Assembly: GCA_030651285.1 (NCBI GenBank)
Contig: JAUSCN010000013.1
Location: 28,448 to 92,447, forward strand
Direction of reading: 5' to 3'
Length of the DNA: 64,000 bases
Origin: a bacterium
Lineage (GTDB): Bacteria > Patescibacteriota > Minisyncoccia > Phycocordibacterales > Phycocordibacteraceae
Shown: one piece after another, positions 4,247 to 54,445 of the stretch
How positions within the stretch are numbered: the stretch's first letter is position 1
Layout: each line of letters begins with the position of its first letter
Position numbers and translations under genes: made by a program
Notes under the pieces: model-generated
Databases searched by the model: none
The model's input: only the letters and a program-made list of their open reading frames with translations
Told to the model about the DNA's origin: nothing

Positions 4247-4296
4247 TATCTGAATATACCCTAAAAACCGCTCTCCACAGGCATCCGAAGAGGTAG

Positions 4297-4324
4297 TTGA
4301 CTGTCAGTTTCATTAGCCTATACT
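4297..4324 (+). promoter_or_regulatory. sigma70-like promoter candidate for the LysM/M23 gene
   Basis: TTGACT, a 16-nt spacer, then TATACT, about 65 nt upstream of the ORF start in a divergent intergenic region. Confidence 0.45.
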
Positions 4325-4388
4325 CTGGGTATCGACTGATACGGAGGCAATCAAGAAATGGCTTATATACGTTGTATGTAAGCAATTT

Positions 4389-5558
4389 TTGTATGAGCAG
4401 ACACACCCAGAGTTTCCCTGTTTTCTTATCGCTTCACACCCAAAAACTTCCAGCTTGATGCCGCAAGACACGAGACTGGATATATATAAGGTACTTGAAC
4501 GATGCGCCCTGCTCATCGCAGGGTTCGCGATTATCACATTCGCCGTCGCTTCAATACCGAACCGTGCAAGCGCATTTTGGCCTTTTTCCACACTGAACGC
4601 AGACGCGGCGGTAGATACCTATATACCAAGCTCTACCACGCCAGTACTTATAGCGAGCGTGAATAGCAACCCAAACGCAGATGTTCCTATCAGCCTCACT
4701 ATTTCTGGAGATTCGGCTCTTATTCCCCATAGCGGACCAATCGGCACCATCACGGACATAGGCAACACACCTCCGCCAGACAGGATCTCAGTCTATGTAG
4801 TACGCCCGGGCGACACCCTCTCGGATATTGCAGGCATGTTCGGCGTTTCCGTAAATACCATCATCTGGGCAAACAATCTCACAAACGCCCGCGACGTGCA
4901 CCCAGGCGAAACGCTCGTCATCCTTCCTATTTCTGGCATTGAACGCACGATAGTTAAGGGAGACACCCTCAAATCGATTGCTAAGAAATACAACGCTGAT
5001 GCGGAAGAAATCGCTCAGTACAACGGTCTCGACCCCACAGAACCACTTGCCCTCAACTCAACCATCATCATCCCTGGCGGAGAATTTGCAGCGCCATCTG
5101 CGCCCGCAACCCAAAACAAGCGCAATCCACGCACGATTCGTGAGCCATATCTTGGCGGAGGAGGATCTGCTCAACCGGGCTACTATATGAACCCGATACC
5201 GGGCGGAATTATCACTCAGGGCCTCCACGGCTGGAACGGTATCGATATCGGTGCTGGCCGCGGCACACCGATTCATGCGGCCGCAGACGGCACTGTCATC
5301 ATCGCTCGCAACAATGGTGGATGGAACGGCGGATACGGAAACTATGTCGTTATCGCACATGAAAATGGAAGCCAGACCCTCTATTCGCACATGAAGAATG
5401 CGATCGTTTCTTCCGGACAGTATGTTTCAGCTGGTCAGACCATCGGCTATGTCGGCTCCACCGGACTATCAACGGGGCCACATCTTCACCTTGAAGTTCG
5501 CGGCGCGGCGAATCCTTTCCGAAACTGTACCGTCGGCACTGCCTGTTCACCGCAATAG
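4389..5558 (+). CDS. secreted LysM-repeat / M23 (LytM) peptidoglycan endopeptidase
   Basis: N-terminal TM anchor. Two LysM-like repeats (VRPGDTLSDIAGMFGVSVNTIIWANNL and KGDTLKSIAKKYNADAEEIAQYNGL). M23 motifs include HxxxD-type AADGTV and GPHLHLEV. The exact start is uncertain (alternative Met near 4458). Confidence 0.85.
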   Translation: MYEQTHPEFPCFLIASHPKTSSLMPQDTRLDIYKVLERCALLIAGFAIITFAVASIPNRASAFWPFSTLNADAAVDTYIPSSTTPVLIASVNSNPNADVPISLTISGDSALIPHSGPIGTITDIGNTPPPDRISVYVVRPGDTLSDIAGMFGVSVNTIIWANNLTNARDVHPGETLVILPISGIERTIVKGDTLKSIAKKYNADAEEIAQYNGLDPTEPLALNSTIIIPGGEFAAPSAPATQNKRNPRTIREPYLGGGGSAQPGYYMNPIPGGIITQGLHGWNGIDIGAGRGTPIHAAADGTVIIARNNGGWNGGYGNYVVIAHENGSQTLYSHMKNAIVSSGQYVSAGQTIGYVGSTGLSTGPHLHLEVRGAANPFRNCTVGTACSPQ

Positions 5559-5588
5559 TCTCTCCATACTGATTTTCAGTAAAAAATA

Positions 5589-5618
5589 ATCGCCAGCTCC
5601 TCCGGAGGAGCTGGCGAT
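5589..5618. terminator. 30-nt perfect palindrome, bidirectional terminator between convergent genes
   Basis: atcgccagctcctcc/ggaggagctggcgat, preceded by an A-run. Confidence 0.7.
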
Positions 5619-5641
5619 CGTGCAAGGCGGGATTTCTCCTG

Positions 5642-6001
5642 TCATTTAAATTTGATCTGACCGACACCCATATGAGCGTCAAATTGCTTTTGATACAACC
5701 TCCAGAATGTTTCCGCTTCTTGTTCAGAAATCACATGATCGCTATCCAGATCGGCCTTTACATACAGACTATAAATCACTCTCTCAAAATTTGGACCGTC
5801 CTTCACGTTTAAGACGATTTCCTGGTTCTTCTGAACTTTGTCCATAATTTCAACAGCTTTCCCTTGTCGCTCGAATTGGAAAGTGTCCCCGAGGAACATT
5901 TTCGTATCGACGAATGAGGGTTTCGAATTAAACGCAGCACATCCGGCAGCGAGAAATGCGAAAAACAACATCAGAACCAAACCAGCATGTCTTTTCATCA
6001 T
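5642..6001 (-). CDS. small lipoprotein with an EF-hand-like calcium-binding loop
   Basis: AGGAGG lies upstream of the internal MMKRH start. Lipobox LAAGC. The loop DLDSDHVISEQE fits DxDxDxxxxxxE. The start coordinate is good to about 1 nt. Confidence 0.6.
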   Translation of the reverse strand: MMKRHAGLVLMLFFAFLAAGCAAFNSKPSFVDTKMFLGDTFQFERQGKAVEIMDKVQKNQEIVLNVKDGPNFERVIYSLYVKADLDSDHVISEQEAETFWRLYQKQFDAHMGVGQIKFK

Positions 6002-6104
6002 TACTCCTCCTAATAAGATGGTGGATGATTCCCTGGAGAGAACGAAAACTTCAGCCCCCATTTATACCAACTTTTGACTCAAAAGTCAAAAGACTCAATC
6101 TCTG

Positions 6105-7682
6105 TCATTCGAATCCAAATAGTCCACGCGGGCGGTATTGAAGTGCTTCGTATACAAATGCGGGAGTGACGGGCTCGGACCCTGCAAGATCAGCGATCGT
6201 CCGAGCGACCCTCATAGTGCGATGGTAGCTCCGCGGAGAAAGATTGAGACGAGCAGCAGCATCTGCCAGAGCCTGTTTCGCCAGAGCGTCAAATCCGCTT
6301 TTTTCATCAAGATCTCGACCCGTGAGCGCAGCATTCGTTACTCCGTTCTTGCCAATGCGTGACCGCGCGCGTTCGCGCGCACGAATGACACGACTGCGAA
6401 CAGTCTCGGAAGATTCTCCTGTTGCAATGCCAGCGAGTGTCTCATGAGGAACGAGTGGGACTTCGACCCACAGATCGAGACGGTCCACAATAGGTCGAGA
6501 GATGCGGCGCGACTGTTTTGCAGCAGCGCGTATCGCTACCTGCGAATCGCCTGAGAGAGTATCTGCTGGATTCATCGCAGCGACGACCATGCAGTCAGCC
6601 GGAAACGTAATACTTGCGCGTGCGCGTGATACCGTCACTACACGATCCTCGAGAGGCTGCCTAAGTGCTTCAAGCGCACGAGACTCAAACTCAGGAAACT
6701 CATCGAGAAACAGCACGCCTTTGTGTGCCAAAGTAACTTCACCTGCTTTAGGAAACGCTCCGCCACCAACGATCGCGACATGAGAAACCGAATGGTGTGG
6801 TGATCGAAACGGCGGCCAATGCACTGCTTCACCTTCTTGAAGAAGGCCAGCGGTCGAGTGTATTGCGGTCACCTCAAGCGTCTCATCATCAGTCAGCGGA
6901 GGAAGAATGCCAGAAAGCGCGCGGGCAAGCATCGTCTTCCCCGTACCCGGAGGACCATGAAACACAATATTGTGACGTCCTGCAGCTGCAATTTCAAGTG
7001 CACGCTTCGCGCCTTCTTGCCCTTTCACATCCGCAAGATCAATAGCGACAGAAGGGACGGGAGATTGCCGATCACGAACGAGGCGTGATAATACTTTCTC
7101 CCCCTTCAAGTGCTCAATAAGCTCTCTAAGCGACTGCGGAGCATGTACGACAACACCGTCTGCGAGAAGCGCTTCGCGCACGTTTCCCGGCGGGACAAAC
7201 ATAGTCTTGATGCCACCACGTTTTGCAGCAAGCACTTGCGGAAGGACTCCGCGCACACTCCTTACCGTCCCATCAAGCGCGAGCTCACCGATAAACAACA
7301 CATCCTCGTTGTGCTGTTTTAGATCACCGACGGCGATGAGATACGCGACCGCAAGCGCAAGATCGTAGTGCGATCCCTCCTTCTTTATATCCGCAGGCGA
7401 CAATGAGAGAACAATGCGCTTGTTCTGCTGTTTCGGAGATTTGTATCCCGAATGCCTCACGGCAGCACTCACTCTATCGCGAGCCTCTTCTACGGATTTA
7501 TTGGCAAGACCGACTATTGAAAATGCGTGCAGTCCACGCGTAAGATCCGCCTCGACAATAACCATCTCGGCTGCGGAACCGACCGGCTGCGCAGCGAGCG
7601 TTTTCGCATATCCGATTTTCTGGAGCGGAGCAGGAGCAGAAGGCATATGAACCGACGGATGATTCGGTTTTGCCGCGGACAT
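6105..7682 (-). CDS. comM: YifB/ComM-family Mg-chelatase-like AAA+ ATPase
   Basis: Lon-like N-terminal domain, Walker [19 protein letters not shown], and a C-terminal ChlI-like tail. Confidence 0.9.
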
Positions 7683-7688
7683 GCTTGC

Positions 7689-8036
7689 TTATAGATGCTC
7701 GACGCAGGTAGTAGCAGCCGGATCTGCTTCAAGGCGTGCAACTTCTATGTCTTTAGTGCAGACCGAACACTTGCCATAGGTCCCCTTCTCGATCCGAGAA
7801 AGTGCCGCAAGGATAGTATCGTATCGCGCTTCGAGATCTGCGAGAATGGCCGTATTGCTTTCGCGACTCATGACTACATCTGCCTGATCAACGAGATCAG
7901 CCTCTACGCCGGTTTCAGACGGAATCGGCTCCCAATCTCCCGGAACACTAGGATTCTTACGGCCAACGCTGGCCATCTCAGCCTCCAATTTGGCTTTTTC
8001 TTCCTCTAGCCTGCTTTTGAACTGATCAGTTTTCAT
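7689..8036 (-). CDS. TraR/DksA-family C4 zinc-finger protein
   Basis: Coiled-coil N-terminus and CSVC..(17)..C-VEH zinc-finger layout. Confidence 0.75.
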   Translation of the reverse strand: MKTDQFKSRLEEEKAKLEAEMASVGRKNPSVPGDWEPIPSETGVEADLVDQADVVMSRESNTAILADLEARYDTILAALSRIEKGTYGKCSVCTKDIEVARLEADPAATTCVEHL

Positions 8037-8057
8037 AGCATGATAATACCAGAGATT

Positions 8058-9566
8058 TTACCGGGCCCGTGAGGTCGCAAGACGTTGCAGTATTTCTATG
8101 AATGCAGCAGTGTCCCGCGCAATAATGAGCGTCGTCTGATCCCAATAGCCATACACCATGACACCACTACCATCCGTATCGCGATATACACGTACGTCGT
8201 GATTAGCAACAACTTCATCGGTGAAATTTGTCGATTGAGCGGGCTTAACGACCGGAGCAATGGTAGGCCGAGCAACGGTTCTCGTCACCCTCGCTAGTGT
8301 CGTGACATCTGGAGTGCTTGACGCGATTCCTGAAACTTGAGCGGAGCGAAGCGGAAAAAGCTGACTAAGATGTTCCTGTATCGCTGGCTCCCATGAAAGC
8401 ATTCCTGAAAAAGTTTCGGCATAGGAATCGACTGAAAGTATGAAAAATGGACTTTGAGTCCCGCCAATGTTCACAATACCGGCCATGCTGCCGGCGACAT
8501 TTACATTGCGACGCAAGATATCAGGAGCGGACACATGCAGTGAAGAGAATACGCTTTCAGAATTGTCCGTCGATGATGCTGTATAGATGAGCCGGACGGA
8601 ACCGGGCATGAGCGGCCGCTCCATTGATTTGGTGATTGCTTCAAAGAGTTTCAGACCGACACCAGACACTTGTTCTCGATCATCGACGAATATCGGCGAA
8701 GAGACGGAGAACTGAAAGATAACAGGATGGAAATTGCTCAGATACCGCGTGTAGGCAAAATACATGCCAGTACCACTCAAGATAAGCAGCGCGATGCCTG
8801 CTGCGATATACAGACGACTACTGAGCGAGGTGGTTTTTTTCTCTGACGGAGTTATTTCTGGAGCTCCAGTTGCAGCATCTTGCTCTGCTGCAAGTACCGT
8901 AGCCGCTGAAGCATGTGTCTCTTTTACTTTATCTGAAAAATCTCCCAAATATGTCTTCACTGAAATAGGTACCGTCGACACCGGAGGAGCGGGAGGTACC
9001 ATGACTGACACTTCTTGTTTTGGTACTACGATCGGCATCTGTTCCAATGGAGATCCTGCAACGAGCCGTTCTGCTGGTACAGGTGTCGACATTGCTGCTG
9101 GAGCCGGCGCTGGAATCGTCCCACTCGACGCCATTGGCGCACCAGCACTCCGATTCACGACAATATTTTCCGGTATCACCGTGGCTTTTCGGAACAATGA
9201 AAGATCTGGAACACCTCCCTTCTTCAAGGTCTTCATGTCGCCCGAAAAAGTACGCACGTATTCTTCCGGATGGCCTTCAGGCTTTGCTGCGCCAACTTCT
9301 TTCGTACGCTCATCGAAAGAAGCTTTTACTGCCTCGGGAAGACCGCGAAACGTCGGGAATTCTTGTTTTCCATCCGCAGCGAGAGCATCGGTCTTACCCT
9401 GCTCCTGGACTACTGCAACTGACTGTTCTTTAGTGACAGTGAACGGAGTAAGGTCGGGCGTACCTCCCTTCTTGAGGATATCTATATCGCTCGAAAAGGT
9501 ACGAATGTATTTTTGTGATTCTTTTTTATCTGAAGATGCATTCGATGCATTTACATTCTCGTCCAT
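8058..9566 (-). CDS. hypothetical membrane protein with repeated Y[IV]RTFSxD..LKKGGxPDL motif
   Basis: 502-aa ORF. The motif occurs at aa 20-42 and 103-125, with a weaker copy near aa 204. A central TM helix (LYIAAGIALLILSGTGMYFAY) is followed by a C-terminal globular part. Confidence 0.6.
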   Translation of the reverse strand: MDENVNASNASSDKKESQKYIRTFSSDIDILKKGGTPDLTPFTVTKEQSVAVVQEQGKTDALAADGKQEFPTFRGLPEAVKASFDERTKEVGAAKPEGHPEEYVRTFSGDMKTLKKGGVPDLSLFRKATVIPENIVVNRSAGAPMASSGTIPAPAPAAMSTPVPAERLVAGSPLEQMPIVVPKQEVSVMVPPAPPVSTVPISVKTYLGDFSDKVKETHASAATVLAAEQDAATGAPEITPSEKKTTSLSSRLYIAAGIALLILSGTGMYFAYTRYLSNFHPVIFQFSVSSPIFVDDREQVSGVGLKLFEAITKSMERPLMPGSVRLIYTASSTDNSESVFSSLHVSAPDILRRNVNVAGSMAGIVNIGGTQSPFFILSVDSYAETFSGMLSWEPAIQEHLSQLFPLRSAQVSGIASSTPDVTTLARVTRTVARPTIAPVVKPAQSTNFTDEVVANHDVRVYRDTDGSGVMVYGYWDQTTLIIARDTAAFIEILQRLATSRAR

Positions 9567-9603
9567 TGCTCTCTATAGTAACGCACCAAACGGCACTTGC
9601 GGG

Positions 9604-10119
9604 TTATGCTCGTGACGTAATGGTGAATTTCTTAGGATCGTCGCACATATCGGTGAAAGCATGTGCTGCTTCTTTGAGCTTACCTGAAGAAGATTTCCCG
9701 AAAGAGATGACCTCTACCTGGCACCCTTCGTGCATATCGAGATACTGAATAAGCGGCACAAAATCGCCATCTCCCGTAACGAGCACGACCGTGTCGAGCT
9801 TTGGTGCAAGCTTCACCGCGTCGATCGCAAGACCGACATCCCAGTCGGCCTTCTTCGCACCGTCAGCAAACACCTGAAGGTCTTTCACTTTCGTTTCGAT
9901 ACCCATCTTCGTCAGCGCCTCGAAGAAATTCTTCTCTTCGCCTGCTTCCGTAGAGATCACATACGCAATCGCTCGCACAAGGACGCGCCCCCCGACCGCC
10001 TCTTCGAGGATCTTGCCGAAATTGACGCGCGCTTTATAGAGATGTTTCGCACTGTGATATAGGTTCTGCGTGTCGATAAAAACTCCTACTCGCTGTGCTG
10101 GATGCTTAATAACTGCCAT
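9604..10119 (-). CDS. NYN-domain (LabA-like) protein
   Basis: VGVFIDTQNLYHSAK near the N-terminus and LVTGDGDFVPL, arranged as in LabA/NYN nucleases. Confidence 0.75.
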   Translation of the reverse strand: MAVIKHPAQRVGVFIDTQNLYHSAKHLYKARVNFGKILEEAVGGRVLVRAIAYVISTEAGEEKNFFEALTKMGIETKVKDLQVFADGAKKADWDVGLAIDAVKLAPKLDTVVLVTGDGDFVPLIQYLDMHEGCQVEVISFGKSSSGKLKEAAHAFTDMCDDPKKFTITSRA

Positions 10120-10239: not shown

Positions 10240-10248
10240 CCCCCCCCC
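10240..10248. repeat. C9 (G9 on the minus strand) homopolymer in the rpsO-NYN spacer
   Basis: Nine consecutive C, 5 nt downstream of the rpsO stop on the coding strand. Confidence 0.9.
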
Positions 10249-10252
10249 TAGA

Positions 10253-10519
10253 CTACTTCTTCAAACCGAGCTTCTTCACGAGCGCGTTGTAGTTGCGCTT
10301 GTTGTTAGTCTCGAGATAGCGAAGATGACTGCGACGATCTGCGACCATCTGCAGGAGGCCACGGCGAGAATGAAAATCCTTCGGATTCTTCTTGAGGTGC
10401 TTTGTGAGCTCGTCAATCTGTCCTGAAAGAAGCGCGACCTGGACCTCTGGCGAGCCAGTGTCCGTATCGTGCCGAGCAGTGTTTTTCATGACTGCCGCCT
10501 TTTTCTTAGTGGTAAGCAT
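10253..10519 (-). CDS. rpsO: 30S ribosomal protein S15
   Basis: An internal Met gives an 88-aa protein (MLTTKKKAAV..GSPEVQVALLSGQIDELTKHLKKNPKDFHSRRGLLQMV..), which is collinear with S15. It ends in TAG. Confidence 0.93.
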   Translation of the reverse strand: MLTTKKKAAVMKNTARHDTDTGSPEVQVALLSGQIDELTKHLKKNPKDFHSRRGLLQMVADRRSHLRYLETNNKRNYNALVKKLGLKK

Positions 10520-10649: not shown

Positions 10650-11549
10650 ATGGACACCGAGACAGCAAAACGCCAGTTTCTCGAGTACATTGAGATCGAA
10701 CGTGGGCGCGCTGTGAAGACTATTGAGAACTACGACCACTATCTCACGCGGTATTTCTCCCAAATGCGCATACAGAAAGTGGGCGATATAAGCGAACAGA
10801 GCATTCGGGAGTTTCGTCTCTGGCTGAACCGCCAATCAGGCACGAACAACGACCCAATGAAGCGCCGGACGCAGAATTACTACATGATCGCACTGCGCGC
10901 ATTCCTTAAATTCCTCCGGAAACGCGATATTCCCGCCATTTCTCCAGAAAAAATAGAGCTCGCGAAGCTTCCAGAGCGCCAAATTGATCTCATCACCCCT
11001 GCAGAGCTCCAACGCCTCTTGAAGACAGCTTCAGGTACTGAAGAGAAAGATCTTCGCAATACTGCCATGCTTGAACTCCTTTTCTCGACCGGACTGCGTG
11101 TTTCAGAGCTTTGCGCACTTGATACTGATCTCGATCTCACTCAGGACTCTTTTTCGATACGCGGGAAGGGCGACAAAGTTCGCGTTGTATTCGTCTCCCT
11201 TGCCGCAAAAAACACAGTATCTGCCTACTTAAAAACACGGAAAGACATGGTGGAGGCGCTTTTTGTAAACATTCCTCGCGGATCCTCAATGCCCACCCGC
11301 CTCACTCCCCGTTCCGTTGAGAGAATCATCAAAGAGTGCGCGATTAAAGCCGGCATTACGAAAAAGGTGACCCCGCACATCCTCCGCCATGCCTTTGCCA
11401 CAGACCTCCTTAACAATGGAGCTGATATCCGTTCAGTGCAGCAACTCCTCGGCCACGCTTCGATTAATACTACTCAGATCTATACCCACATCACCGACTC
11501 CCATCTACGCGAAATTCACAAAAAATTCCACGGCAAAGACCGCACATAA
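10650..11549 (+). CDS. xerC: tyrosine recombinase, XerC/XerD family
   Basis: SAM-like N-terminal domain. Catalytic-region motifs are ELLFSTGLRVSEL, HILRHAFATDLL and LLGHASINTTQIYTH. Confidence 0.88.
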   Translation: MDTETAKRQFLEYIEIERGRAVKTIENYDHYLTRYFSQMRIQKVGDISEQSIREFRLWLNRQSGTNNDPMKRRTQNYYMIALRAFLKFLRKRDIPAISPEKIELAKLPERQIDLITPAELQRLLKTASGTEEKDLRNTAMLELLFSTGLRVSELCALDTDLDLTQDSFSIRGKGDKVRVVFVSLAAKNTVSAYLKTRKDMVEALFVNIPRGSSMPTRLTPRSVERIIKECAIKAGITKKVTPHILRHAFATDLLNNGADIRSVQQLLGHASINTTQIYTHITDSHLREIHKKFHGKDRT

Positions 11550-11842: not shown

Positions 11843-12118
11843 TTACGAAACGGCTTTTAGCGCCTCTTCGACAGTGCTGTATCGTTTGCCATACTTTTTA
11901 GCATATGCCATTTCGCGTAAAACGCGCGCTTCAAACTCAGGAGTGAATCCGTTCACGGTGCGCGGGGTAAATGGCATCGCTTTATCCTGTGCCACTCTGG
12001 TGAGGTACATATTGACACCCGTTGAGAGGTCGAGCCCCATACGCTTGAATACGCGCTGCGCCTCGCGTTTTATCGCTGCATCAGTTCGCACATTAAGAAT
12101 TGCTGTTTTTGTTGCCAT
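11843..12118 (-). CDS. dinJ: type II antitoxin, RelB/DinJ family
   Basis: N-terminal ribbon-helix-helix pattern ILNVRTDAAIKREAQRVFKRMGLDLSTGVNMYL. It lies 5 nt upstream of the toxin gene. Confidence 0.8.
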   Translation of the reverse strand: MATKTAILNVRTDAAIKREAQRVFKRMGLDLSTGVNMYLTRVAQDKAMPFTPRTVNGFTPEFEARVLREMAYAKKYGKRYSTVEEALKAVS

Positions 12119-12212: not shown

Positions 12213-13169
12213 TTATTTGAGCATCCGTGTAACGAGCGCAATCATCTGCTCTTTCTTCTTTGGGTCGCTCTCGGCGATGAGGAGAGTGAGCGCGGTGAGC
12301 GCTGGCGGATTTATATTGCGACCATTCTTGCTTCGAGCCTTTCGTAGAAACTAAACAAACGAGAATGCTCCCGACCGTTTGTTACCGTCGGTGAAGGGAT
12401 GATTCTTCACCATGAAATACAGAAGGTGGGCAGCCTTCTCTTCAATGGTCTCGTACATAGCTTTCCCGCCAAACGATTGCATGACGTTTCCGACGATGCC
12501 TTCGATACTTCCTACAGCTCTCTCGTGCGCAAAAATCTCCGTCGCTTCGCCTCTTTTGAGAAGCTCGGAACGAAGACTTAGAATCGCTTCCGTCAGTTCC
12601 ACGCCAGTCAACTTGACCGCTTTTTTAGTGGACCCAACCGTTGTTAGAGTCTCTTTATCATACGCGTCAAGCGATATCCAAGTACTCGAGAATTCTTTAA
12701 TCAATTCCAATATCGCTTTTGGATCAAGAAGCACCTGTTCCGGCAAAAGCGACTGAATATCCGAAACGGATTTCATAAACGCATCGTAGTTCTTCGCAAT
12801 CTGCCTGCGATTTACGGTGTAGCCCTTGGTGATGTGCTCGCGCAGCGTCTTGGTCGCCCACTTTCTAAACTCTATGGCAATCTTTGAATTAGTTCGGTAG
12901 CCGATGCTTAAAATAATGTCGAGAGAATAAGCAGCGACCGGTTTGTCAGAATGTGCAATGTGCATTTTTTGCACATTGCTTTTTTCATCAATTTCTCCGT
13001 CTTTCAAGATATTCCTGATGTGTTTGGTTACAACCGACCGCTCCACACCGAACACATCGGCGATTTGCGCCTGTGTCGCCCAAAGCGTCTCGCGCGACAT
13101 ATCGCCACGGAACTCGATTGCGCCGTTCTTTGCCTGATATATGACCATGCCGGTATTCTTTTTTCCCAT
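12213..13169 (-). pseudogene. RhuM-like N-terminal domain fused to a Fic/Doc toxin domain, interrupted by an in-frame TAG at 12351-12353
   Basis: RhuM-type N-terminus (VIYQAKNGAIEFR..LWATQAQIADVFGV..LDIILSIGYRTNSKIAIEFRKWAT). The Fic/Doc motif HPFTDGNKRSGAFSFV is followed by TAG. The same frame then continues for 45 codons (FLRKARSKNGRNINPPALTALTLLIAESDPKKKEQMIALVTRMLK) to TAA at 12213. Confidence 0.75.
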
Positions 13170-13278: not shown

Positions 13279-13875
13279 CTACATCCGGTGGATGTATGTC
13301 GCCTGAATCTCTTGAGCGATAGAAACACCGGAACGCAATCTTTTCACGCCGAGCTCTTGTAGGCTTTCAAGAGCATTCGCACGAGTGTCTATCAAGGTCA
13401 TCGGGGCACACATCGTGGGAGTCCGTTCGACAATTTCCAGAAATAGCCTTTTGGCGAGACCTTTCTGATTTTGCCGAACACATAACTCGGCGAATCGACA
13501 TAGTCCGAAGTATCCGAGCTTCCCCGGAGTGTCTGCCGTCTCGCTCGAGTAATATCTTCCGAGCTGTGGCGGATCATGAATAAGAAGAACCTTTTTCTTC
13601 CCATCCATGATTCCCAGGAAGAGTTCCATCGCTTCAGCCTCATGTCCTTGCTTGGCGAGACACAGAGCAAGCTTCTCCGAATAAGAACTCTTGCAGTTCA
13701 GCTTCCCGTCTTTCCCAACGACTGTCGCCAATTTGACGAGCAGATCTTCCAGATCACTCCGGCAGAACAATGGGTTCGAATCTTTGCCATACCCTATCTT
13801 CTTGAGCCAACGAGTAGTGAACAGGAACGGGTGACGAGACGAGACTTTTCGAATCGCCCGGGTGGTAGTTCCCAT
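13279..13875 (-). CDS. hypothetical protein, helical-repeat-like
   Basis: AAAGGAG lies 5 nt upstream of the internal ATG (MGTTTRAIRK..). No family was recognised. Two TPR-like helix pairs are present (EKLALCLAKQGHEAEAMELFLGI and FAELCVRQNQKGLAKRLFLEIVE). Confidence 0.5.
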   Translation of the reverse strand: MGTTTRAIRKVSSRHPFLFTTRWLKKIGYGKDSNPLFCRSDLEDLLVKLATVVGKDGKLNCKSSYSEKLALCLAKQGHEAEAMELFLGIMDGKKKVLLIHDPPQLGRYYSSETADTPGKLGYFGLCRFAELCVRQNQKGLAKRLFLEIVERTPTMCAPMTLIDTRANALESLQELGVKRLRSGVSIAQEIQATYIHRM

Positions 13876-14077
13876 GGGCACTCCTTTCCGATAAATATGA
13901 ATTTGTACTTATTTTGATTCTGGGTGGAATGTACCACAGATGTTTCTAGTGCAGCAGATTATTATTCTAAAACTTCACGGCTCTGTAGTCATCAAATTCG
14001 ACATCCATAAAGTCTGTCCTCATACCAGAATATCCTTCATTTAGAAAAAATGCTCCCGTTGCGAAGTCTTTAAGCAT

Positions 14078-15106
14078 TTACTCAATCTCTCTTATGCTGA
14101 ACAGTTTATATTCCGCGTCTTTAATCTCATCATTTCTTATAAACACGGAGGTGCCGGGCTCTAAAAGAATTTTATTTGCCGGGTAACCACATATTTTCTG
14201 GACATCTATCCCTGGATTGATCTGTGACCAATCGCCTCTGTCGGTATATTCCGCAACTTTTTCCCAAGCACCACCATTCTTTCCATCTGTTAAATCTCTA
14301 TGGAGCTCCAGCTTTACCGACCCCCCATCTGGGTTAGATTTTACGATAAACTTCACACCAATCCATACATTCGATGGCATGGATGCATCAACAGTATTCC
14401 ATTTCGTTTTGTGAGTCTCGCTCGGTTTATTCCTACTGTATGATCCTTCATGTATCAATTCCTTTTGGAATACGGCGCGCCCATCGTAAAGCAGTCTCCC
14501 GTAATACGTCGCACCGAAACAAGGATTTTCCTCTGTTGCATCCTGATGCTCGCTTCGTGCCCCAATGACAATACCCTGAGAACTTGTCGAGCCGTATTCC
14601 GACACCCGTTTCGCATAAATCGTGACCTCAACATTATTCCATTTTTTGTTTTTAGCAGGATCAAGAACATACATTCTCGGAGCATCGCCCTCTAGTCGAA
14701 CAGTACCGTCACCCTGAATGTACACAGCACCATCGCCACGAGAAACAAATTCACGATCAACAGGGTCACTGTCCCCACTATGCAAGGTCTTAGCTTTTTC
14801 TTTTGCCCATTTTGAGTACCAAACCCGACTATTTTCCTTTGTGGGATATAGCATTGCAATCCCATCGAAAGATAACGCGATCGTTGGTGTGATAACAGGC
14901 TTCGAAGGAAGTTTCTCTGGATCCTCTAACTCACCTGGCTCAATCGATAATACCGGCTCTGGTGCTACATTCTCGGAATTTGTGCCCAGTGACTCAGCTT
15001 TGAGATATAAAGCCCCCCAAACCACTACAATCAGAGCAATACCTACCCTTGCAAGGAATTTAATCCTTGAGCGCCTTAGCTCCCCCGACCTGTGAGGTTC
15101 ATCCAT
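14078..15106 (-). CDS. secreted/anchored beta-jelly-roll-like protein, possible polysaccharide lyase or binding protein
   Basis: N-terminal TM anchor (VGIALIVVVWGALYL). The beta-rich C-terminal part (WNNVEVTIYAKRV, GATYYGRLLYDGRAVFQKELIHEG, WIGVKFIV) looks like a ConA-like/PL fold. This is pattern recognition only. The gene overlaps the upstream gene by 31 nt. Confidence 0.5.
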   Translation of the reverse strand: MDEPHRSGELRRSRIKFLARVGIALIVVVWGALYLKAESLGTNSENVAPEPVLSIEPGELEDPEKLPSKPVITPTIALSFDGIAMLYPTKENSRVWYSKWAKEKAKTLHSGDSDPVDREFVSRGDGAVYIQGDGTVRLEGDAPRMYVLDPAKNKKWNNVEVTIYAKRVSEYGSTSSQGIVIGARSEHQDATEENPCFGATYYGRLLYDGRAVFQKELIHEGSYSRNKPSETHKTKWNTVDASMPSNVWIGVKFIVKSNPDGGSVKLELHRDLTDGKNGGAWEKVAEYTDRGDWSQINPGIDVQKICGYPANKILLEPGTSVFIRNDEIKDAEYKLFSIREIE

Positions 15107-18100
15107 CCGTCCAGTATAGTGGACCAGATTGTTCTTGGGAAACGAGACGACAAAATATCAAGTTTGAATTGAGCGGGAACAGCTTCGTGAAGAACGAATT
15201 CTGTCTGCGGAATGCCATTTCCCCTATCCAGTTCAGAAAGGGTCATAATTCTTATTCCCTGCCGCTTCATATCTTTAATGACAGTCTCGAAATCCCTCAA
15301 TGAAAATTCAGTATGTTGAGATGCTGGTCCCTTTGAAATTTTATGGAACATTAGGAATAGCGTCTGCTTATATTTTATTGCATCGCTAACAGCATTATGA
15401 GCATCTGTTGATTGTGCGGTATTACTGTACATACCAAACGTTCCTACTGCGAGCGAATCAGCAAACGGGAACGCTACAGGCACAGCAATGGTTGCTCGAG
15501 CGTATTTATAGTATTTGCCTATGATGGCTCGCGTAGAATTGTCGATGCTACCATCTGGATATACGTACCAGTTTGGAGCTGAATTGAGATCATTTTTGAT
15601 CAAGTAGTACAGCGCATCCATAACATCATTAGTAAAGCCCTCTATGTTATCTTCATGTACGTATTCAAGAACCGCATTCTTGTGGAGACTCGAGTGACTT
15701 ACCACATTCCACCCATACTCACTCTGGAGGGTTTTTAGATTATCCAATGTTAGATACCTCTTCGTATCAACGCTACCAGTCACCATTGCAACATTGCCTT
15801 TTACTCCGTACTTATTCATGATTTGAGCAGCATCCATCACCGATGCCCATCCATCATCAAAAACAATTACTGCGCGAGCCTCCTTTTGATCAGGAACTAA
15901 TCTAAATTCATGAATATTTACTTTTGCTACCTTACCCTGTTTCGCAGTTGCGACAATTTTAATTCCATCGACCTTAGACCAATCGAATGATGAATCCTTC
16001 TTTGTCCAATTACCCAATTCGACCTTCCTCAAGTCACCCTTAGCCACTCCGAAGTTGATCCACGTATTATTTCGATTGATGTCTTCTTCCGGATCAGGAA
16101 TAATCGACTTTACATTAAACTTGGCATAAGTTGCCCAATTATCATTGGAAAGATACAGATCAACGCCCTGCAGGCTGAAGATCCTATCGACCTTGAATTG
16201 GAAGTAGATGTTGTGATTCGACAAATCTAGATTGACTTTCTTCTCAATACCGAAATGTGAACCATCGGAAGCCGTGGTTATTCCAAGACTGTTTTCCTTC
16301 TGATTAACAGATAAGGATCCTCCAACTACTCCAGAAATGAATTCGCTTACCTCCTCCCATCCTATAGATGTATTTAGAGAATCAATCTGTTGTATTGATG
16401 AGTTACTCTGGTTTGCATCATAATTTTTCTTCACATCGATACTTCTCTCTACGTTCTCAGTTCTGTCTATTTTAACTGTATACTCACCTTTCTTTGTCGT
16501 AACTATTACAAGATTTTTATCCTGTCTGAAGGTTACATTAGCGGCATTTTGACCGATATTAATTGCAGTCACATAAGAAACACTGTTTCCTTTTTTTGCA
16601 TACGAAATCGAATGACATGGAATCGCTACTTTGTATTGAACTGAGCACTGTCCATCAAGTGGTTTCTGTTTATTTATTGCCGTACTCAACTTAAGACCAT
16701 CAGTGGCGAACTGTTTGATAGTTAGGGATTGCTTTGGATCAGAACCTTCCGCCTTGAGAGTTAAGCCGTCAGTGGTTACTCGAGCTCCTGGGAAGAGGTG
16801 GAACATCTGTTCATACGTATGCGGTGCAGAAGACTTGAGATTGTCCAACACAAGTACGGTGGAATCCTCGATTAATACTATTGCCCTCTCGTGAGAGACG
16901 CCATCATAAAGAATGTTTTGGCCAGACTGGTACACATAGCCATCCCCTTCTTCGAAAAATCCAGCGAAGACCTTTTTTGGCTGTGTACTTGATTCGAGAC
17001 CCGCCGACTGATCCTTACCGTCTACAACGACAGTATTGTGAGATCGTGTTCCATGGAAATATGAGCGGTATGACCCCTCTTCATACGTATAAAGACCCGC
17101 GTCCGGCATCAAAGCTATTCCCCCGCCAAAAAGATTGAAGCTGAGTGCGTCGAGATCGCTATGATTGGTTCTGTAATTCCCAACATCAAATATAACCTGT
17201 GTTTGATTTACATACCCATTCTTATTGTTCCAAGCAGACCTCATTATGGTTTGCCCGCCTGAGGGGTATCGAATATTCAGCTTTGCAGGCTTCTCACCCT
17301 CCTCGCCCTGCGTCAATACATACAACAGATCCGGACGTTTCTCTGCAATTTCCTTATAGAGACCAAATAGATTTATCTGCCTCGTAATAGAGGCACCGAC
17401 CGTCGACACCGACAGGTCAGGTTGCAACATATAGACGACGTAAGACACCATTTTATCTAGCTTTTCTTCCGAAAAACCATCTATCGTGAGGTTGTTCTGT
17501 TTTAGATATTTATTGATCTCCAAAAACTTTTCCAAAACATAGAGATGGTAGTACGGCGAATTTTCGACCAACACCCCATCCTCATCAATAATATTTGCCT
17601 GACTCTCAGCAATTCGCTTTGACGCCAATTTGTACCACGAATCTGCCCCCTTCATGTCGGGGAAATTAGCTGCCAAAAGGAAGAGTGCTGCAGCCTGATC
17701 GAGGCCATGGTTATAATCCTTCTCAAAATGAGTAGGGTCCGCCAGGAAGTTTCCATGAACCTTGAGCGACGCCAATATTTTCTTGTCTAACTCGGGTGAC
17801 AATTCATTTTTCTCACGCAACTTCGCCTGCACGCTTATGAGCGTCATGGCCCTAAATGCAACACCATGGTAGTCCCACGAATATTGGCCTTTTTGACCCT
17901 TATCTAGAAAAGACTCGGTGATCTGAATCAGATTATCCTTATACTCTGGCTTGCCAGTCTTCTGCCACGCAAAAAGAAGATTCCGTACAGGCTCTAGATT
18001 GTAATAATTAAAACGCCAATAAATATCAGAAAATGGATCTTCTTTCCAAGTTTGTTTATTTATCACTACGGGCTCGAATCGACTGATTTCGTATCTATTC

Positions 18101-18321
18101 TCGAGAATCCCATCTGCCACTCGAATATCTCCGGTTGCGATATTCGAGTAAATAATTTCCTTCCCATACACGATAGGATAGTCGTGATTCTGAATCATCT
18201 TGAGTATCTTGCTGCCCATCGGATACAGCAAAACAACGACTACCCCTATCAGGGTAACGATAAGTCCCAGATGAGCATGTTTCTTTTTTAGAAGAGCCAT
18301 AAATTTTAGCGTGTCCCCCAC
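15076..18321 (-). CDS. membrane-anchored heparinase II/III-like lyase fused to a CE4 (NodB) polysaccharide deacetylase
   Basis: 1081 aa. Heparinase II/III block NHSDLDALSFNLFGGGIALMPDAGLYTY..GTRSHNTVVVDGKDQ. C-terminal CE4 motifs VIVFDDGW and VSHSSLH. Overlaps the GT2 gene by 16 nt. Confidence 0.8.
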   Translation of the reverse strand: MGDTLKFMALLKKKHAHLGLIVTLIGVVVVLLYPMGSKILKMIQNHDYPIVYGKEIIYSNIATGDIRVADGILENRYEISRFEPVVINKQTWKEDPFSDIYWRFNYYNLEPVRNLLFAWQKTGKPEYKDNLIQITESFLDKGQKGQYSWDYHGVAFRAMTLISVQAKLREKNELSPELDKKILASLKVHGNFLADPTHFEKDYNHGLDQAAALFLLAANFPDMKGADSWYKLASKRIAESQANIIDEDGVLVENSPYYHLYVLEKFLEINKYLKQNNLTIDGFSEEKLDKMVSYVVYMLQPDLSVSTVGASITRQINLFGLYKEIAEKRPDLLYVLTQGEEGEKPAKLNIRYPSGGQTIMRSAWNNKNGYVNQTQVIFDVGNYRTNHSDLDALSFNLFGGGIALMPDAGLYTYEEGSYRSYFHGTRSHNTVVVDGKDQSAGLESSTQPKKVFAGFFEEGDGYVYQSGQNILYDGVSHERAIVLIEDSTVLVLDNLKSSAPHTYEQMFHLFPGARVTTDGLTLKAEGSDPKQSLTIKQFATDGLKLSTAINKQKPLDGQCSVQYKVAIPCHSISYAKKGNSVSYVTAINIGQNAANVTFRQDKNLVIVTTKKGEYTVKIDRTENVERSIDVKKNYDANQSNSSIQQIDSLNTSIGWEEVSEFISGVVGGSLSVNQKENSLGITTASDGSHFGIEKKVNLDLSNHNIYFQFKVDRIFSLQGVDLYLSNDNWATYAKFNVKSIIPDPEEDINRNNTWINFGVAKGDLRKVELGNWTKKDSSFDWSKVDGIKIVATAKQGKVAKVNIHEFRLVPDQKEARAVIVFDDGWASVMDAAQIMNKYGVKGNVAMVTGSVDTKRYLTLDNLKTLQSEYGWNVVSHSSLHKNAVLEYVHEDNIEGFTNDVMDALYYLIKNDLNSAPNWYVYPDGSIDNSTRAIIGKYYKYARATIAVPVAFPFADSLAVGTFGMYSNTAQSTDAHNAVSDAIKYKQTLFLMFHKISKGPASQHTEFSLRDFETVIKDMKRQGIRIMTLSELDRGNGIPQTEFVLHEAVPAQFKLDILSSRFPRTIWSTILDGWMNLTGRGS

Positions 18322-19659
18322 TTCGTATCATTGATACGAATGATGGCATACGGCATCTGCCAAATCATAACGACCGTGTAAAAAACTGAGAACAGAGGCA
18401 TAAGATACCAGTATCTTTCTTTCTGCATCAAAAATAGGTACCCGCCAAATAAAAATCCCATGGTGGTTACCCCAAAGATAAAGGCTATGAAAAAAGTCGG
18501 ATTCATAAGCATAATGCTCTTGAATATGACAAGGCCGACAACAATAGGACCTAAGGTGGGAAGAATAAGATTCGTATAAAATGCGGTGGCCGCCAATGGG
18601 TGCTTTCTCCAAATAAACTTGGCAGCCACAGACCCTTCTCGAATCCACGACTTCTTCCAGCGAAGCTGCTGTTTTAGGAATTTATTGTATTTTTCTGGAA
18701 CGATAGTTACAGCCCTTGCCGCCTGACAATATTCGACATCCCGAGTGCGAAGCACGAAATTTGTCAGACTCCTATCATCGCCAAACGTACTTCGTGTCCC
18801 CATGAACATCTGATTACGCCACTCGGCAATCACTGGCAAAACGGCATCCCTTCTGTACGCAGAAAAACAACCTGGGCAACAGGTCACTACCCCGAAAAAA
18901 CTTTCTGAAACCTTGAAGATATCGTACGATACTGCATATCGTATCGACTGCATTTTTGTCAAAAGATTTACTTGATGATTTGCAACTCCAGTATTTCCCG
19001 ACACAGCTCCGACACGCGGGTTTGCAAAATGGTGCACAAGGTGCCGAAGAGCGTCTCTCTTCAAGAAACTATCAGAATCTACGAAAACGATTATCTCATT
19101 TCTTGCAACAGAAACCCCTTCAGACATCGCTTCCCTTTTCCCTTTATTTACGCCCAGAGTAATCGCCTTAACCAGCTTCTCGCCAAAAAACTCACTCGCA
19201 CGCTGCATCTCAGCATAAGTCTTGTCGGTAGATCCATCATCAACAGCAATGCATTCCATTTCCGCTGGATAATCGGATTTCATGCATGTTTCTATCGTCT
19301 CAAAAATAGACTTCTCTTCATTTTTTCCAGCGATGATGAAGCTTACTTTAGGGTAATTGAAATTCGACAGGACATTTCCTGTATGGATATCCTTATCGTC
19401 ATAGAGAAAAGCGAGAGGGAGTCGCGAGAGTAGAAATACCCCCCCCCAGCAAGCTATAGATGTACCAAAAAATTAGTACCCCATCGCCAGTTTCCGTATT
19501 CAAGTAATATGCAACTTTATACAGAGAAATAAGGGACAGTATCGAAAAGAAAAGAAAGAATGCAGGAACAGATGAAATACCGCCAACAAAGCCGACATTT
19601 TTATCCACCGCAAATGGAGTAATTATGTGAGTAGGTTTATACGATGTATTTTGCTGCAT
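18306..19659 (-). pseudogene. processive GT2 polysaccharide synthase (hyaluronan-synthase/NodC-like), split by a frameshift at a G9 tract; possibly phase-variable rather than dead
   Basis: The N-terminal 86-aa two-TM ORF (19399..19659) stops 17 codons after the tract. The +1 frame is open from just 5' of the tract and reads ..VFLLSRLPLAFLYDDKD..YPKVSFIIAGKNEE..AVDDGSTDKT, then FVDSDS, GDDRSLTN, QQLRWKKSW and C-terminal TM helices. Removing one G gives a single 450-aa ORF. Confidence 0.8.
19439..19447. repeat. C9/G9 homopolymer inside the GT2 synthase gene (frameshift site)
   Basis: Nine consecutive C on the plus strand. On the coding strand the sequence reads ctG GGG GGG GGt. Confidence 0.9.
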
Positions 19660-19674
19660 GAGGGTAAATAAAAA

Positions 19675-19698
19675 GGCATGGAGACGTCTCCATGCCTG
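19675..19698. promoter_or_regulatory. 24-nt perfect palindrome in a divergent promoter region, candidate operator
   Basis: aggcatggagac/gtctccatgcct, between the GT2 gene start (19659, minus) and the xth start (19796, plus). Confidence 0.35.
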
Positions 19699-19795
19699 AC
19701 ATAATATGTATCATACAATCATACATATGTCAACTTTTTCATAAAAAATAGAAAATGCAGTGAAAAATGAGTTTTCTCTCTGATATAGTTCTCAT

Positions 19796-51766: not shown

Positions 51767-51866
51767 GGTGGATGAAAAGATTAGGTTGTGCACATGATAC
51801 TAACAGGTTCTCCACGAAACGCCAGTGTGGCTTGTCTATATAAGGAAGCGTATACTCCAAAGCATT

Positions 51867-53219: not shown

Positions 53220-53330
53220 TGTTTATACGTTCTATATCAACATATTGTTTAGAATCTAAGAATCAAAATAGTGAGCAGGTACGCTTTATTTTAAGTTTAT
53301 CCACTTATCAACAGCCCTAATAGAATCCGT
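53220..53330. promoter_or_regulatory. candidate oriC segment (dnaA-dnaN spacer)
   Basis: AT-rich 111-nt spacer with abutting DnaA-box-like 9-mers TTATCCACT (53297-53305) and TTATCAACA (53305-53313). A further TGTGGATAG lies at 53165-53173 inside the dnaA 3' end. Confidence 0.5.
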
Positions 53331-54431: not shown

Positions 54432-54445
54432 TATAGAATTTGATA

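Follow-up and report, generated by a model that had tools for sequence, protein, structure and literature searches.

A three-gene minus-strand locus for cell-surface polysaccharide production is proposed here at positions 14,078 to 19,659 of a 64,000-nucleotide stretch of a Patescibacteria genome (GenBank assembly GCA_030651285.1, contig JAUSCN010000013.1, positions 28,448 to 92,447 of the forward strand; this whole stretch is referred to as the window). It encodes a membrane glycosyltransferase of family 2 (GT2), a lyase–deacetylase fusion protein and a concanavalin A (ConA)-like protein. On balance, and with a slight lean in its favour, we read the locus as a module that is complete in itself, is exchanged horizontally, makes a cell-surface polysaccharide by the synthase-dependent route and carries its own on/off switch. 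As in other synthase-dependent exopolysaccharide (EPS) systems, a membrane GT2, which we presume to be processive, is co-encoded with modifying and cleaving enzymes, and the arrangement is syntenic across phyla. The surface glycans of Patescibacteria are nearly uncharted, although host-cell attachment defines the lifestyle of these organisms, and the locus offers a compact, widely conserved candidate pathway for such a glycan with clear catalytic residues. The first-pass annotation of the DNA had placed the locus in a reduced cell resembling the candidate phyla radiation (CPR); the Patescibacteria host was confirmed, whereas the picture of a module peculiar to one reduced genome has given way to one that is widespread across phyla.

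In the mechanism that we propose, the GT2 would polymerise UDP-N-acetylhexosamine (UDP-HexNAc), probably together with a UDP-uronate, and would extrude the chain through its own transmembrane channel, by homology to the hyaluronan synthases (HAS) CvHAS and XlHAS. The anchored fusion protein would act on the nascent chain outside the membrane, where its domain of carbohydrate esterase family 4 (CE4) is predicted to take off some of the N-acetyl groups and its domain resembling polysaccharide lyase (PL) family 12 is predicted to cleave, or possibly to C5-epimerise, at uronates, with consequences for chain length and release. This role would parallel that of PgaB, PelA, AlgL and BcsZ in other synthase systems. 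The ConA-like protein, likewise anchored, would bind or handle the polymer at the surface; its fold and conservation suggest as much, as does the fact that in Solirubrobacterales it is fused to the lyase. The whole pathway would be gated by a run of G in the 5' part of the synthase gene, on at eight G (G8) and off at nine (G9), and the window genome would be off. The slot that holds the locus, between xth and a toxin–antitoxin/integrase region, would be replaceable, and the locus would behave like a capsule-type serotype locus.

The synthase and its poly-G tract

The synthase gene is split in the window allele: ORFs (open reading frames) of 86 and 325 aa are the two halves of one gene, with the frameshift inside the G9 run. 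Deleting one G from this run yields a 450-aa ORF that has no other defect, ends in WGTR and matches an intact 450-aa homologue (P0001) at 86% identity along 100% of its length. The four motifs by which the enzyme had first been recognised (VDDGSTD, VDSDSF, FGDDRSLTN and QQLRWKKSWIRE) were all found in the sequence, together with KWGTR. Its Pfam matches are Glycos_transf_2 and Chitin_synth_2, and its best matches in the PDB are XlHAS1 (3.5e-29) and CvHAS (2e-24), with chitin synthases next at 1e-11 and no BcsA chain among the PDB sequence matches. The best NCBIfam model is NodC (TIGR04242), at 169.8 bits against a cut-off of 550, and the PgaC_IcaA model (TIGR03937), whose motifs also differ, gives 130.8 bits against 422.3; on these profiles the synthase is assigned to neither the NodC nor the PgaC family. 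In a motif alignment with Bacillus anthracis HasA (30.6% identical to the synthase), three NodC proteins, PgaC, XlHAS1 and CvHAS, it shares GDDR..LTN, KSWxRE and the terminal WGTR with HAS, where NodC instead has GEDRHLTI and WLSR.

A neighbour-joining (NJ) distance tree (275 columns, few references, 500 bootstraps counted as unrooted splits) placed the window synthase in a separate clade with 94% support, together with other Patescibacteria GT2s, the alternative synthase of a sister strain (L005) and a Paenibacillus GT2; the branching of this clade relative to HAS and NodC was left undecided by the bootstrap, at 53% against 39%. The earlier assignment to a HAS/NodC-type GT2 was accordingly kept in part: motifs and PDB matches are of the HAS type rather than the PgaC or BcsA type, but the enzyme lies outside the HAS clade. 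Two CvHAS residues, K177 and R341, contact the carboxylate of glucuronate (PMC12988647). Their counterparts were considered as an indicator of the product and set aside, as they are conserved here but also in NodC (GKR, QxxRW) and do not discriminate.

The nearest cultivated relative of the synthase is the Paenibacillus GT2, which is 41% identical and has two CE4 genes and a gene of glycoside hydrolase (GH) family 18 as neighbours. This protein, encoded on a Paenibacillus cellulositrophicus plasmid (L008, 8368–10245), is extended at its N-terminus by a segment that contains RxxxR and DxSxxG-like motifs and, on visual inspection of the alignment, looks like a PilZ domain; if it is one, the CE4/GH18-associated polymer would be under cyclic di-GMP control. 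Across the related loci the lyase is partnered by two types of synthase, type A with GDDR and WGTR and type B with (A/S)TDR and WxRG. The window synthase is of type A, and type B most often has a dehydrogenase upstream.

At a length of G8 the tract would read in frame (CTG GGG GGG GTA, L-G-G-V). The same cassette with the same G9 is present in a separate Logan assembly (L007), and a synthase from another sequencing project (L093, 82% identical after repair) has G9 at the same codon with the same frameshift. An orthologue that is 77% identical (L094) has G8 at this codon, its 440-aa gene being intact. Orthologues at greater distance lack a tract at that codon, and in L001 an in-frame G8 lies at another Gly-Gly-Val site. 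Type B synthases provide a second pair, in which L017 has G9 and is broken, one deletion giving 483 codons, and L041 (74% identical) is intact, with G8 at the corresponding site. The non-redundant low-GC loci, 454 kb in all, contain five G/C runs of at least eight, four of which lie inside a GT2 gene (7% of bases; P = 1.2e-4, post hoc test). Between the two G9 alleles (window and L093) the ratio of nonsynonymous to synonymous divergence (dN/dS) is 0.063 at a dS of 1.7, so that the synthase has been under purifying selection throughout this divergence, unlike an old pseudogene. Because of the G9 frameshift, no polymer is expected from the window allele as it stands. As in known contingency loci, a homopolymer lies within an ORF that is under purifying selection, and its lengths among relatives toggle the frame. 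The simplest reading of these comparisons is that the tract is probably a slipped-strand contingency (on/off) switch caught in its on and off lengths. Simple-sequence phase variation would, it appears, be seen here for the first time in Patescibacteria; no report of it in these bacteria was found in the searchable literature.

Two further runs were noted. The only other G/C run of at least eight in the window (10,240–10,248; C9 on the plus strand, G9 on the minus strand) is non-coding and lies about 5 nt past the stop codon of the gene for ribosomal protein S15 (10,253–10,519, minus strand). A Saccharimonadales cassette (L079) has an in-frame G8 (6121–6128; GAG GGG GGG GTC) within its dehydrogenase gene, possibly a further switch point of the same pathway.

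Partner proteins, exchange and distribution

The second gene had been described as a heparinase II/III-type module fused to a CE4 deacetylase, and this description was borne out by Pfam scores above the curated cut-offs for Hepar_II_III_N (63 bits), Hepar_II_III_C (100 bits) and Polysacc_deac_1 (PF01522, 34.6 bits against 23.1), and by a PL12 fold. In the AF2 model (pLDDT 89.9) a membrane helix at the N-terminus leads into an alpha/alpha toroid with a beta-sheet, which is followed by a beta-sandwich and then by the CE4 barrel; the sandwich (aa 601–800) is possibly carbohydrate-binding. Foldseek returned PL12 structures first (4mmi, 4mmh, 5jmd and 4fnv; E 5e-29 to 1e-26, target TM 0.65–0.70), followed by PL39, PL15, PL17, PL35, PL33, PL21 and dermatan-sulfate epimerase. 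All structural neighbours of the lyase module are uronate C5 lyases or epimerases, which act by abstraction of the C5 proton, and the HepC equivalog model of NCBIfam gives 91 bits, below its cut-off of 700. In heparinase III (4MMH), Tyr294 and His424 are catalytic and Asn240 is neutralising (PMC12088678). The positions N240, Y294 and H424 align to N204, Y258 and H387 of the fusion protein. All three are invariant in 60 homologues, the heparinase-like block having kept the catalytic His and Tyr of its family, and so are many arginines as well as D822, D823, H876, H880, R942 and H993 of the CE4 domain. From knowledge of the family, we take FDD, H876/H880, R942 and H993 to be the CE4 motifs.

The third protein was modelled (AF2, pLDDT 91) as an N-terminal membrane helix (aa 9–40), a linker and a ConA-like jelly roll, for which L-type lectins are the nearest structures, Foldseek matching ERGIC-53, VIP36 and legume lectins (E about 4e-6, target TM 0.35–0.50). 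Searches of Pfam, NCBIfam and PDB sequences gave no match, and the protein is placed at the level of fold only. The first-pass annotation had called it a secreted jelly-roll protein; the jelly roll stands, whereas the helix at the N-terminus, some 32 residues long, has the look of a membrane anchor and not of a secretion signal. It is the most conserved of the three proteins, with R144, E160, Y164, R184, H187 and Y201 among the very conserved residues.

The locus occupies a segment that differs between strains. Its GC content (14,000–19,790) is 0.425 against 0.501 in the rest of the window (z = -4.2 against windows of the same size), and its tetranucleotide profile correlates with the rest at 0.58, against about 0.9 elsewhere, so that the atypical composition first noticed on single lines held up in the full computation. 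Three other assemblies encode an identical copy of the neighbouring Xth protein; of these, L007 carries the window cassette, and L005 and L006 carry a different one (in L005, GCA_030646265.1 JAUSNI010000005.1, positions 2523–9762). Divergence from the sister strain sets in at about 14,000 at the left end and, at the right end, immediately ahead of the xth start codon, and the window and alternative cassettes are both GC-poor relative to the genome. The near-identical flanks, the alternative content and the GC-poor cassettes together give direct support for horizontal exchange, as had been proposed from composition, and the locus is swappable between strains. Alternative cassettes at one site among strains of a species imply diversifying pressure, from hosts, phages or predators. 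In the alternative cassette, the trio of GtrA, N-terminal GT2 and GT-C protein resembles systems that decorate polymers outside the cell.

Relatives of the module are found far beyond this strain. Moranbacteria and other Patescibacteria contigs (L002–L004, L014–L016 and L093) show the order GT2, fusion and ConA-like gene again, between flanks that are unrelated. With one genome scanned per species, relatives of the fusion or of the lyase numbered at least 582. Many Patescibacteria lineages have the full fusion, as do Actinomycetota, Acidobacteriota and an alphaproteobacterial metagenome-assembled genome (MAG), and the lyase alone is present in Solirubrobacterales, Myxococcota, Actinoplanes and archaea. 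A nucleoside diphosphate (NDP)-sugar 6-dehydrogenase is present in 27 of the 79 related loci in a tblastn synteny table, usually directly upstream of the GT2. The commonest layout is the dehydrogenase, the GT2, the lyase–(linker)–CE4 protein and the ConA-like protein, and the layout with the dehydrogenase was confirmed by Pfam in an Actinomycetota MAG. These dehydrogenases belong to TIGR03026 and score best with the models for UDP-ManNAc dehydrogenase and TviB (UDP-GlcNAc 6-dehydrogenase), below the equivalog cut-offs; their scores with UDP-glucose dehydrogenase models are lower than with the UDP-HexNAc ones. The order in Actinoplanes is lyase, GT2, CE4, an unannotated gene and a second CE4; a paper on EPS in Actinoplanes missouriensis was considered as a precedent and rejected, as it concerns unrelated Wzx/Wzy and GtrA clusters.

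A Solirubrobacterales MAG (L066, 286–9803) has an operon of a dehydrogenase, a type A GT2, a GH18 with fn3, a GH18 and a protein that joins ConA-like (Laminin_G_3), Big_7 and PL12-like lyase domains, with similar arrangements in L067, L069, L072 and L092. By gene fusion, this last protein would tie the third gene functionally to the lyase, and a polymer of mixed GlcNAc/uronate composition is suggested by an operon that pairs GH18 with a uronate-type lyase. An hhalign comparison of the third-gene family with the Laminin_G_3 protein of the Actinomycetota cassettes gave no significant sequence link, the likeness being at the level of fold only. Lyase homologues were also seen in archaeal MAGs labelled as Methanosarcinales, Poseidoniales, Thaumarchaeota and Thalassarchaeaceae (L030, L036, L040, L075, L080 and L082); a dehydrogenase is present as well in L036, L040 and L075, the first two of which also have a type B GT2.

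The positions of the features are collected in the table below. The first-pass annotation gave overlaps of 16 and 31 nt between the three genes. The overlap of 31 nt between the fusion gene and the third gene is solid, and the gene calls of L007 agree with it, whereas that of 16 nt between the synthase and fusion genes hinges on a GTG start of the fusion ORF (1081 aa). Gene callers start the fusion at an ATG seven codons downstream, which gives 1074 aa and a 5-nt gap to the synthase; an exact look-up of the 1081-aa form in the protein collection found no record, the collection containing the 1074-aa form. With either start the three genes appear tightly coupled, and the tight spacing or overlap, seen likewise in homologous loci, upholds the single operon-like module that had been proposed.

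Upstream of the synthase, a promoter-like TTGACA-N17-TACATA of putative function is conserved in orthologous cassettes (L001 and L093); it was not listed by a consensus promoter scanner. Just downstream of it, a strong terminator-like hairpin sits in the 5' leader; it is weaker in L001 and none is evident in L093. The hairpin may act as an attenuator, stabilise the 5' end or serve as a palindrome for protein binding, and an Rfam scan of the leader at a permissive threshold gave sub-threshold matches at chance level and no riboswitch.

Positions of features in the window and gene content of the alternative cassette in the sister strain
Feature	Positions	Strand	Basis or remarks
Replaced strain-variable low-GC segment	14000..19790	.	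Flanks 99.9% identical to L005, which has a different 7.4-kb cassette there
Synthase gene, type A, putatively processive GT2 of the HAS/NodC/chitin-synthase group, split in window allele	18306..19659	minus	ORFs, Pfam, PDB matches, tree, motifs
N-terminal synthase ORF, hydrophobic N-terminal segments	19399-19659	minus	86 aa
C-terminal synthase ORF, catalytic/C-terminal part	18306-19283	minus	325 aa
G9 homopolymer (C9 on plus strand)	19439..19447	minus	+1 frameshift; candidate slipped-strand phase-variation tract
Predicted bifunctional extracytoplasmic modifying enzyme (fusion protein)	15076..18321	minus	1081 aa; Pfam, AF2, Foldseek
Lyase module, (alpha/alpha) toroid and antiparallel beta-sheet, heparinase III (PL12)-like, about aa 45-600	16522..18189	minus	Alignment to 4MMH, Foldseek
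Middle beta-sandwich, about aa 601-800	15922..16521	minus	Homologue alignment, AF2; invariant W772, F779, W781
CE4 polysaccharide deacetylase domain, about aa 801-1081	15079..15921	minus	Pfam PF01522; FDD 821-823, HSSLH 876-880, R942, H993
Third gene, ConA-like protein	14078..15106	minus	342 aa; AF2, Foldseek
Promoter-like TTGACA-N17-TACATA, 5' of synthase	19705..19733	minus	Conserved in L001, L093; putative function
Terminator-like hairpin (10 bp, 6 GC) followed by T-run	19674..19697	minus	z = -4.0; ends 14 nt before synthase ATG
36-aa remnant ORF, equal to the C-terminal end of alternative cassette gene 5 (296 aa)	13967..14077	minus	Left recombination junction
Alternative cassette gene 1			GtrA
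Alternative cassette gene 2			679-aa double GT2; C-terminal half type A, 42% identical to window synthase; extra GT2 domain N-terminal
Alternative cassette gene 3			767-aa CE4 protein
Alternative cassette gene 4			PMT_2 (GT-C) protein
Alternative cassette gene 5			296-aa ConA-like protein, distant relative of third gene (hhalign probability 91%)

Adjoining the swapped segment on its left, and shared with the sister strain, are genes for a tyrosine recombinase (10,650–11,549), a RelB antitoxin (11,843–12,118), a RhuM/Fic-Doc protein (12,351–13,169) and a protein of 198–200 aa (13,279–13,881). The only other low-GC zone of the window, at 51–55 kb, was considered as another island and rejected, being dnaA/dnaN beside a penicillin-binding protein (PBP) gene in an origin region. 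The genes dnaA, dnaN and that for the class A PBP lie at 51,825–56,572, the minimum of the cumulative GC skew is at about 49–53 kb, and the window probably holds the chromosomal replication origin.

Product, switch and rival explanations

Several observations weigh against a switchable module for a surface polysaccharide of the kind proposed. The activities of all its members are predicted from genes and models. The clade of the synthase is distinct from the proven HAS enzymes in the NJ tree, and its Paenibacillus relative pairs with CE4 and GH18 only, which suggests a chitin-like product. No dehydrogenase was found in the cassette, in the 64-kb window or within 8–10 kb in other type A Patescibacteria loci, and tblastn of pXO1 HasB against the window gave noise only. 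For the tract, the window and L007 may share a sampling project, so that the G9 call is not fully independent; the differences in length come from separate genomes; and the protein collection contains no 'on' form of the exact window synthase, the best match being 86% identical.

The product is accordingly worded with caution. The proteins of the locus point to a HexNAc-containing chain that would be partly de-N-acetylated outside the cell. An acidic HexNAc/uronate polymer, as first proposed, is plausible, its uronate being deduced from the conserved lyase triad, the HAS-type motifs and the dehydrogenase in relatives, type A loci included; we give an acidic polymer about an even chance. If the donor in the relatives is a UDP-HexNAc-uronate, one sugar would serve the deacetylase and the lyase alike, which is speculation. 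A broader reading, which we hold tentatively, is that an undescribed pathway shared by Patescibacteria and several other phyla builds an acidic surface polymer of amino sugars that is new, such as a GlcNAc/HexNAc-uronate chain with part of its N-acetyl groups removed. Its parts would be an optional NDP-HexNAc 6-dehydrogenase, the HAS-like GT2, the PL12-like lyase with CE4, the ConA-like protein and sometimes GH18, and in ultra-small epibionts the coat would be serotype-swappable between strains and reversibly switched by poly-G slippage. On this reading, a capsule-like switch for immune or phage evasion or for attachment, as in pathogens, would be at work in CPR bacteria.

The alternative that survives best, though we consider it unlikely, is a neutral chitin-like polymer that becomes cationic and chitosan-like after CE4 action, the PL12-like domain having another role such as binding or an unrecognised activity. 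The absence of an NDP-sugar dehydrogenase in or near any type A Patescibacteria cassette fits this well, as do the Paenibacillus type A GT2, set between its two CE4 genes and GH18, and the sister-strain cassette, which has a type A GT2 and CE4 without the lyase. NodC is the best NCBIfam match (170 bits), and NodC pairs with the CE4 enzyme NodB; yet GDDR and WGTR are of the HAS type, where NodC has GEDR and WLSR. A lyase-like domain with another role also agrees poorly with a triad and many arginines that are invariant in 60 fusions, the window branch included, and with structural neighbours that every one work at uronate C5. Moreover, type A GT2s of Solirubrobacterales follow a dehydrogenase, and GH18 and the lyase share an operon there.

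Regarding the tract, gene decay or a homopolymer error in assembly or sequencing, with no switch at all, is improbable. Homopolymers are hot spots of both mutation and error, the exact window synthase is on record solely in its off form, and two pattern scans of JGI metagenome contigs, one at the window site and one at the L017/L041 site, found 0 tract-length variants each. However, the G9 call was obtained again in the separate Logan assembly and in the 82%-identical orthologue of another project, both halves of the synthase are otherwise intact under the low dN/dS given above, and G8/G9 pairs stand at homologous sites in two unrelated GT2 types. The enrichment of tracts in the synthase gene and the two intact downstream genes also speak against decay or error. 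We find it just as hard to believe that G9 is decoded by programmed transcriptional slippage or +1 ribosomal frameshifting, with a low level of full-length synthase as a tuned state. The recurrence of G9 at one site in two diverged lineages under strong purifying selection would agree with such decoding, and long homopolymers promote slippage of RNA polymerase, but in-frame G8 alleles at the same sites (L094 and L041) indicate that the length is not fixed, and no stimulatory element was identified, although no systematic search was made. A contingency switch is preferred over both.

Least probable of all is that the lyase–deacetylase and the lectin-like protein lie only incidentally beside the synthase and are weapons or feeding tools against glycans of a host (its capsule, for instance) or of other foreign cells: many Patescibacteria are epibiotic and the characterised PL12 enzymes that were matched (heparinase III/heparan-sulfate lyase HepC) are degradative, but the strict synteny and overlap with the GT2 extend across phyla to multi-megabase contigs or complete genomes of Actinomycetota and Myxococcota, lineages generally regarded as free-living, the precursor-supplying dehydrogenase lies in the same operons, and both proteins are predicted to be membrane-anchored and are encoded beside the synthase.

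Comparison with known systems

No description of this module was found in the searchable literature, and within synthase-dependent systems the combination is new: a synthase of the HAS type with a lyase of the PL12 type that is fused to CE4. Together with the UDP-HexNAc-like dehydrogenases of relatives, this combination possibly points to a new class of polymer.

Class I HAS loci (hasABC in Streptococcus; hasACB on Bacillus pXO1) likewise rely on a single membrane GT2 of about 420–450 aa. The synthase resembles these enzymes in DxD, GDDR..LTN, QxxRW-KSxxRE, the terminal WGTR and its best PDB matches, and relatives of the module carry a sugar 6-dehydrogenase beside the synthase, in the manner of hasB. 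In contrast to these loci, the window locus has neither hasB nor hasC, its synthase falls in its own 94% clade, and the dehydrogenases of its relatives are closest to the UDP-ManNAc dehydrogenase and TviB models rather than to UDP-glucose dehydrogenase; hyaluronan loci, for their part, lack a fused lyase–CE4 protein and a lectin-like partner. The reference operon on B. anthracis pXO1 (L009, 3959–7409) reads hasA-galU-dehydrogenase; in PLSDB, pXO1 hasA is present only as a predicted-resistance-gene feature (97.93% identity), with no coding sequence in the gene table.

The systems for poly-N-acetylglucosamine (PNAG; PgaABCD/IcaADBC) and Pel (PelA) share the logic of a synthase combined with a bifunctional extracytoplasmic protein for CE4 deacetylation and polymer cleavage: PgaB is CE4 with GH153, PelA is GH166 with CE4, and pgaB adjoins pgaC. 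The cleaving domain of the window protein, however, is a PL12-like lyase and not a glycoside hydrolase, the locus has neither PgaD/IcaD nor an outer-membrane porin, and the PgaC_IcaA score is far below its cut-off. NodABC resembles the locus in that a GT2 of the same superfamily lies beside a CE4 gene (nodB-nodC), but NodC is only 24–27% identical, its 550-bit cut-off is far from reached, its motifs are GEDRHLTI and WLSR, and it makes short oligomers without a lyase or lectin partner.

Alginate (Alg8, AlgL) is an acidic synthase-dependent polymer with an operon-encoded lyase that acts on its own product and a dehydrogenase, AlgD, of the same family as those in relatives of the module. It differs in that AlgL is a PL5 enzyme, Alg8 belongs to another GT2 branch, CE4 is absent, and export relies on an apparatus of the Gram-negative envelope. 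Heparinase III enzymes of PL12 (Pedobacter HepC, 4MMH; Bacteroides BT4657, 5JMD) have the same fold and the same Asn/Tyr/His triad as the lyase module, at 17–19% identity, whereas the window protein is membrane-anchored, fused to CE4 and set in a biosynthetic rather than a catabolic context.

Contingency tracts are known from the poly-C of siaD in Neisseria meningitidis and the poly-G of capsule and lipooligosaccharide genes in Campylobacter jejuni. The present tract differs from these in its hosts, which are Patescibacteria and related uncultured lineages, and in that lengths are compared between genomes and not within a population. What it has in common with them is a G/C tract of 8–9 within the coding frame of a polymerase for a surface polysaccharide, where the length of the tract sets the gene in or out of frame.

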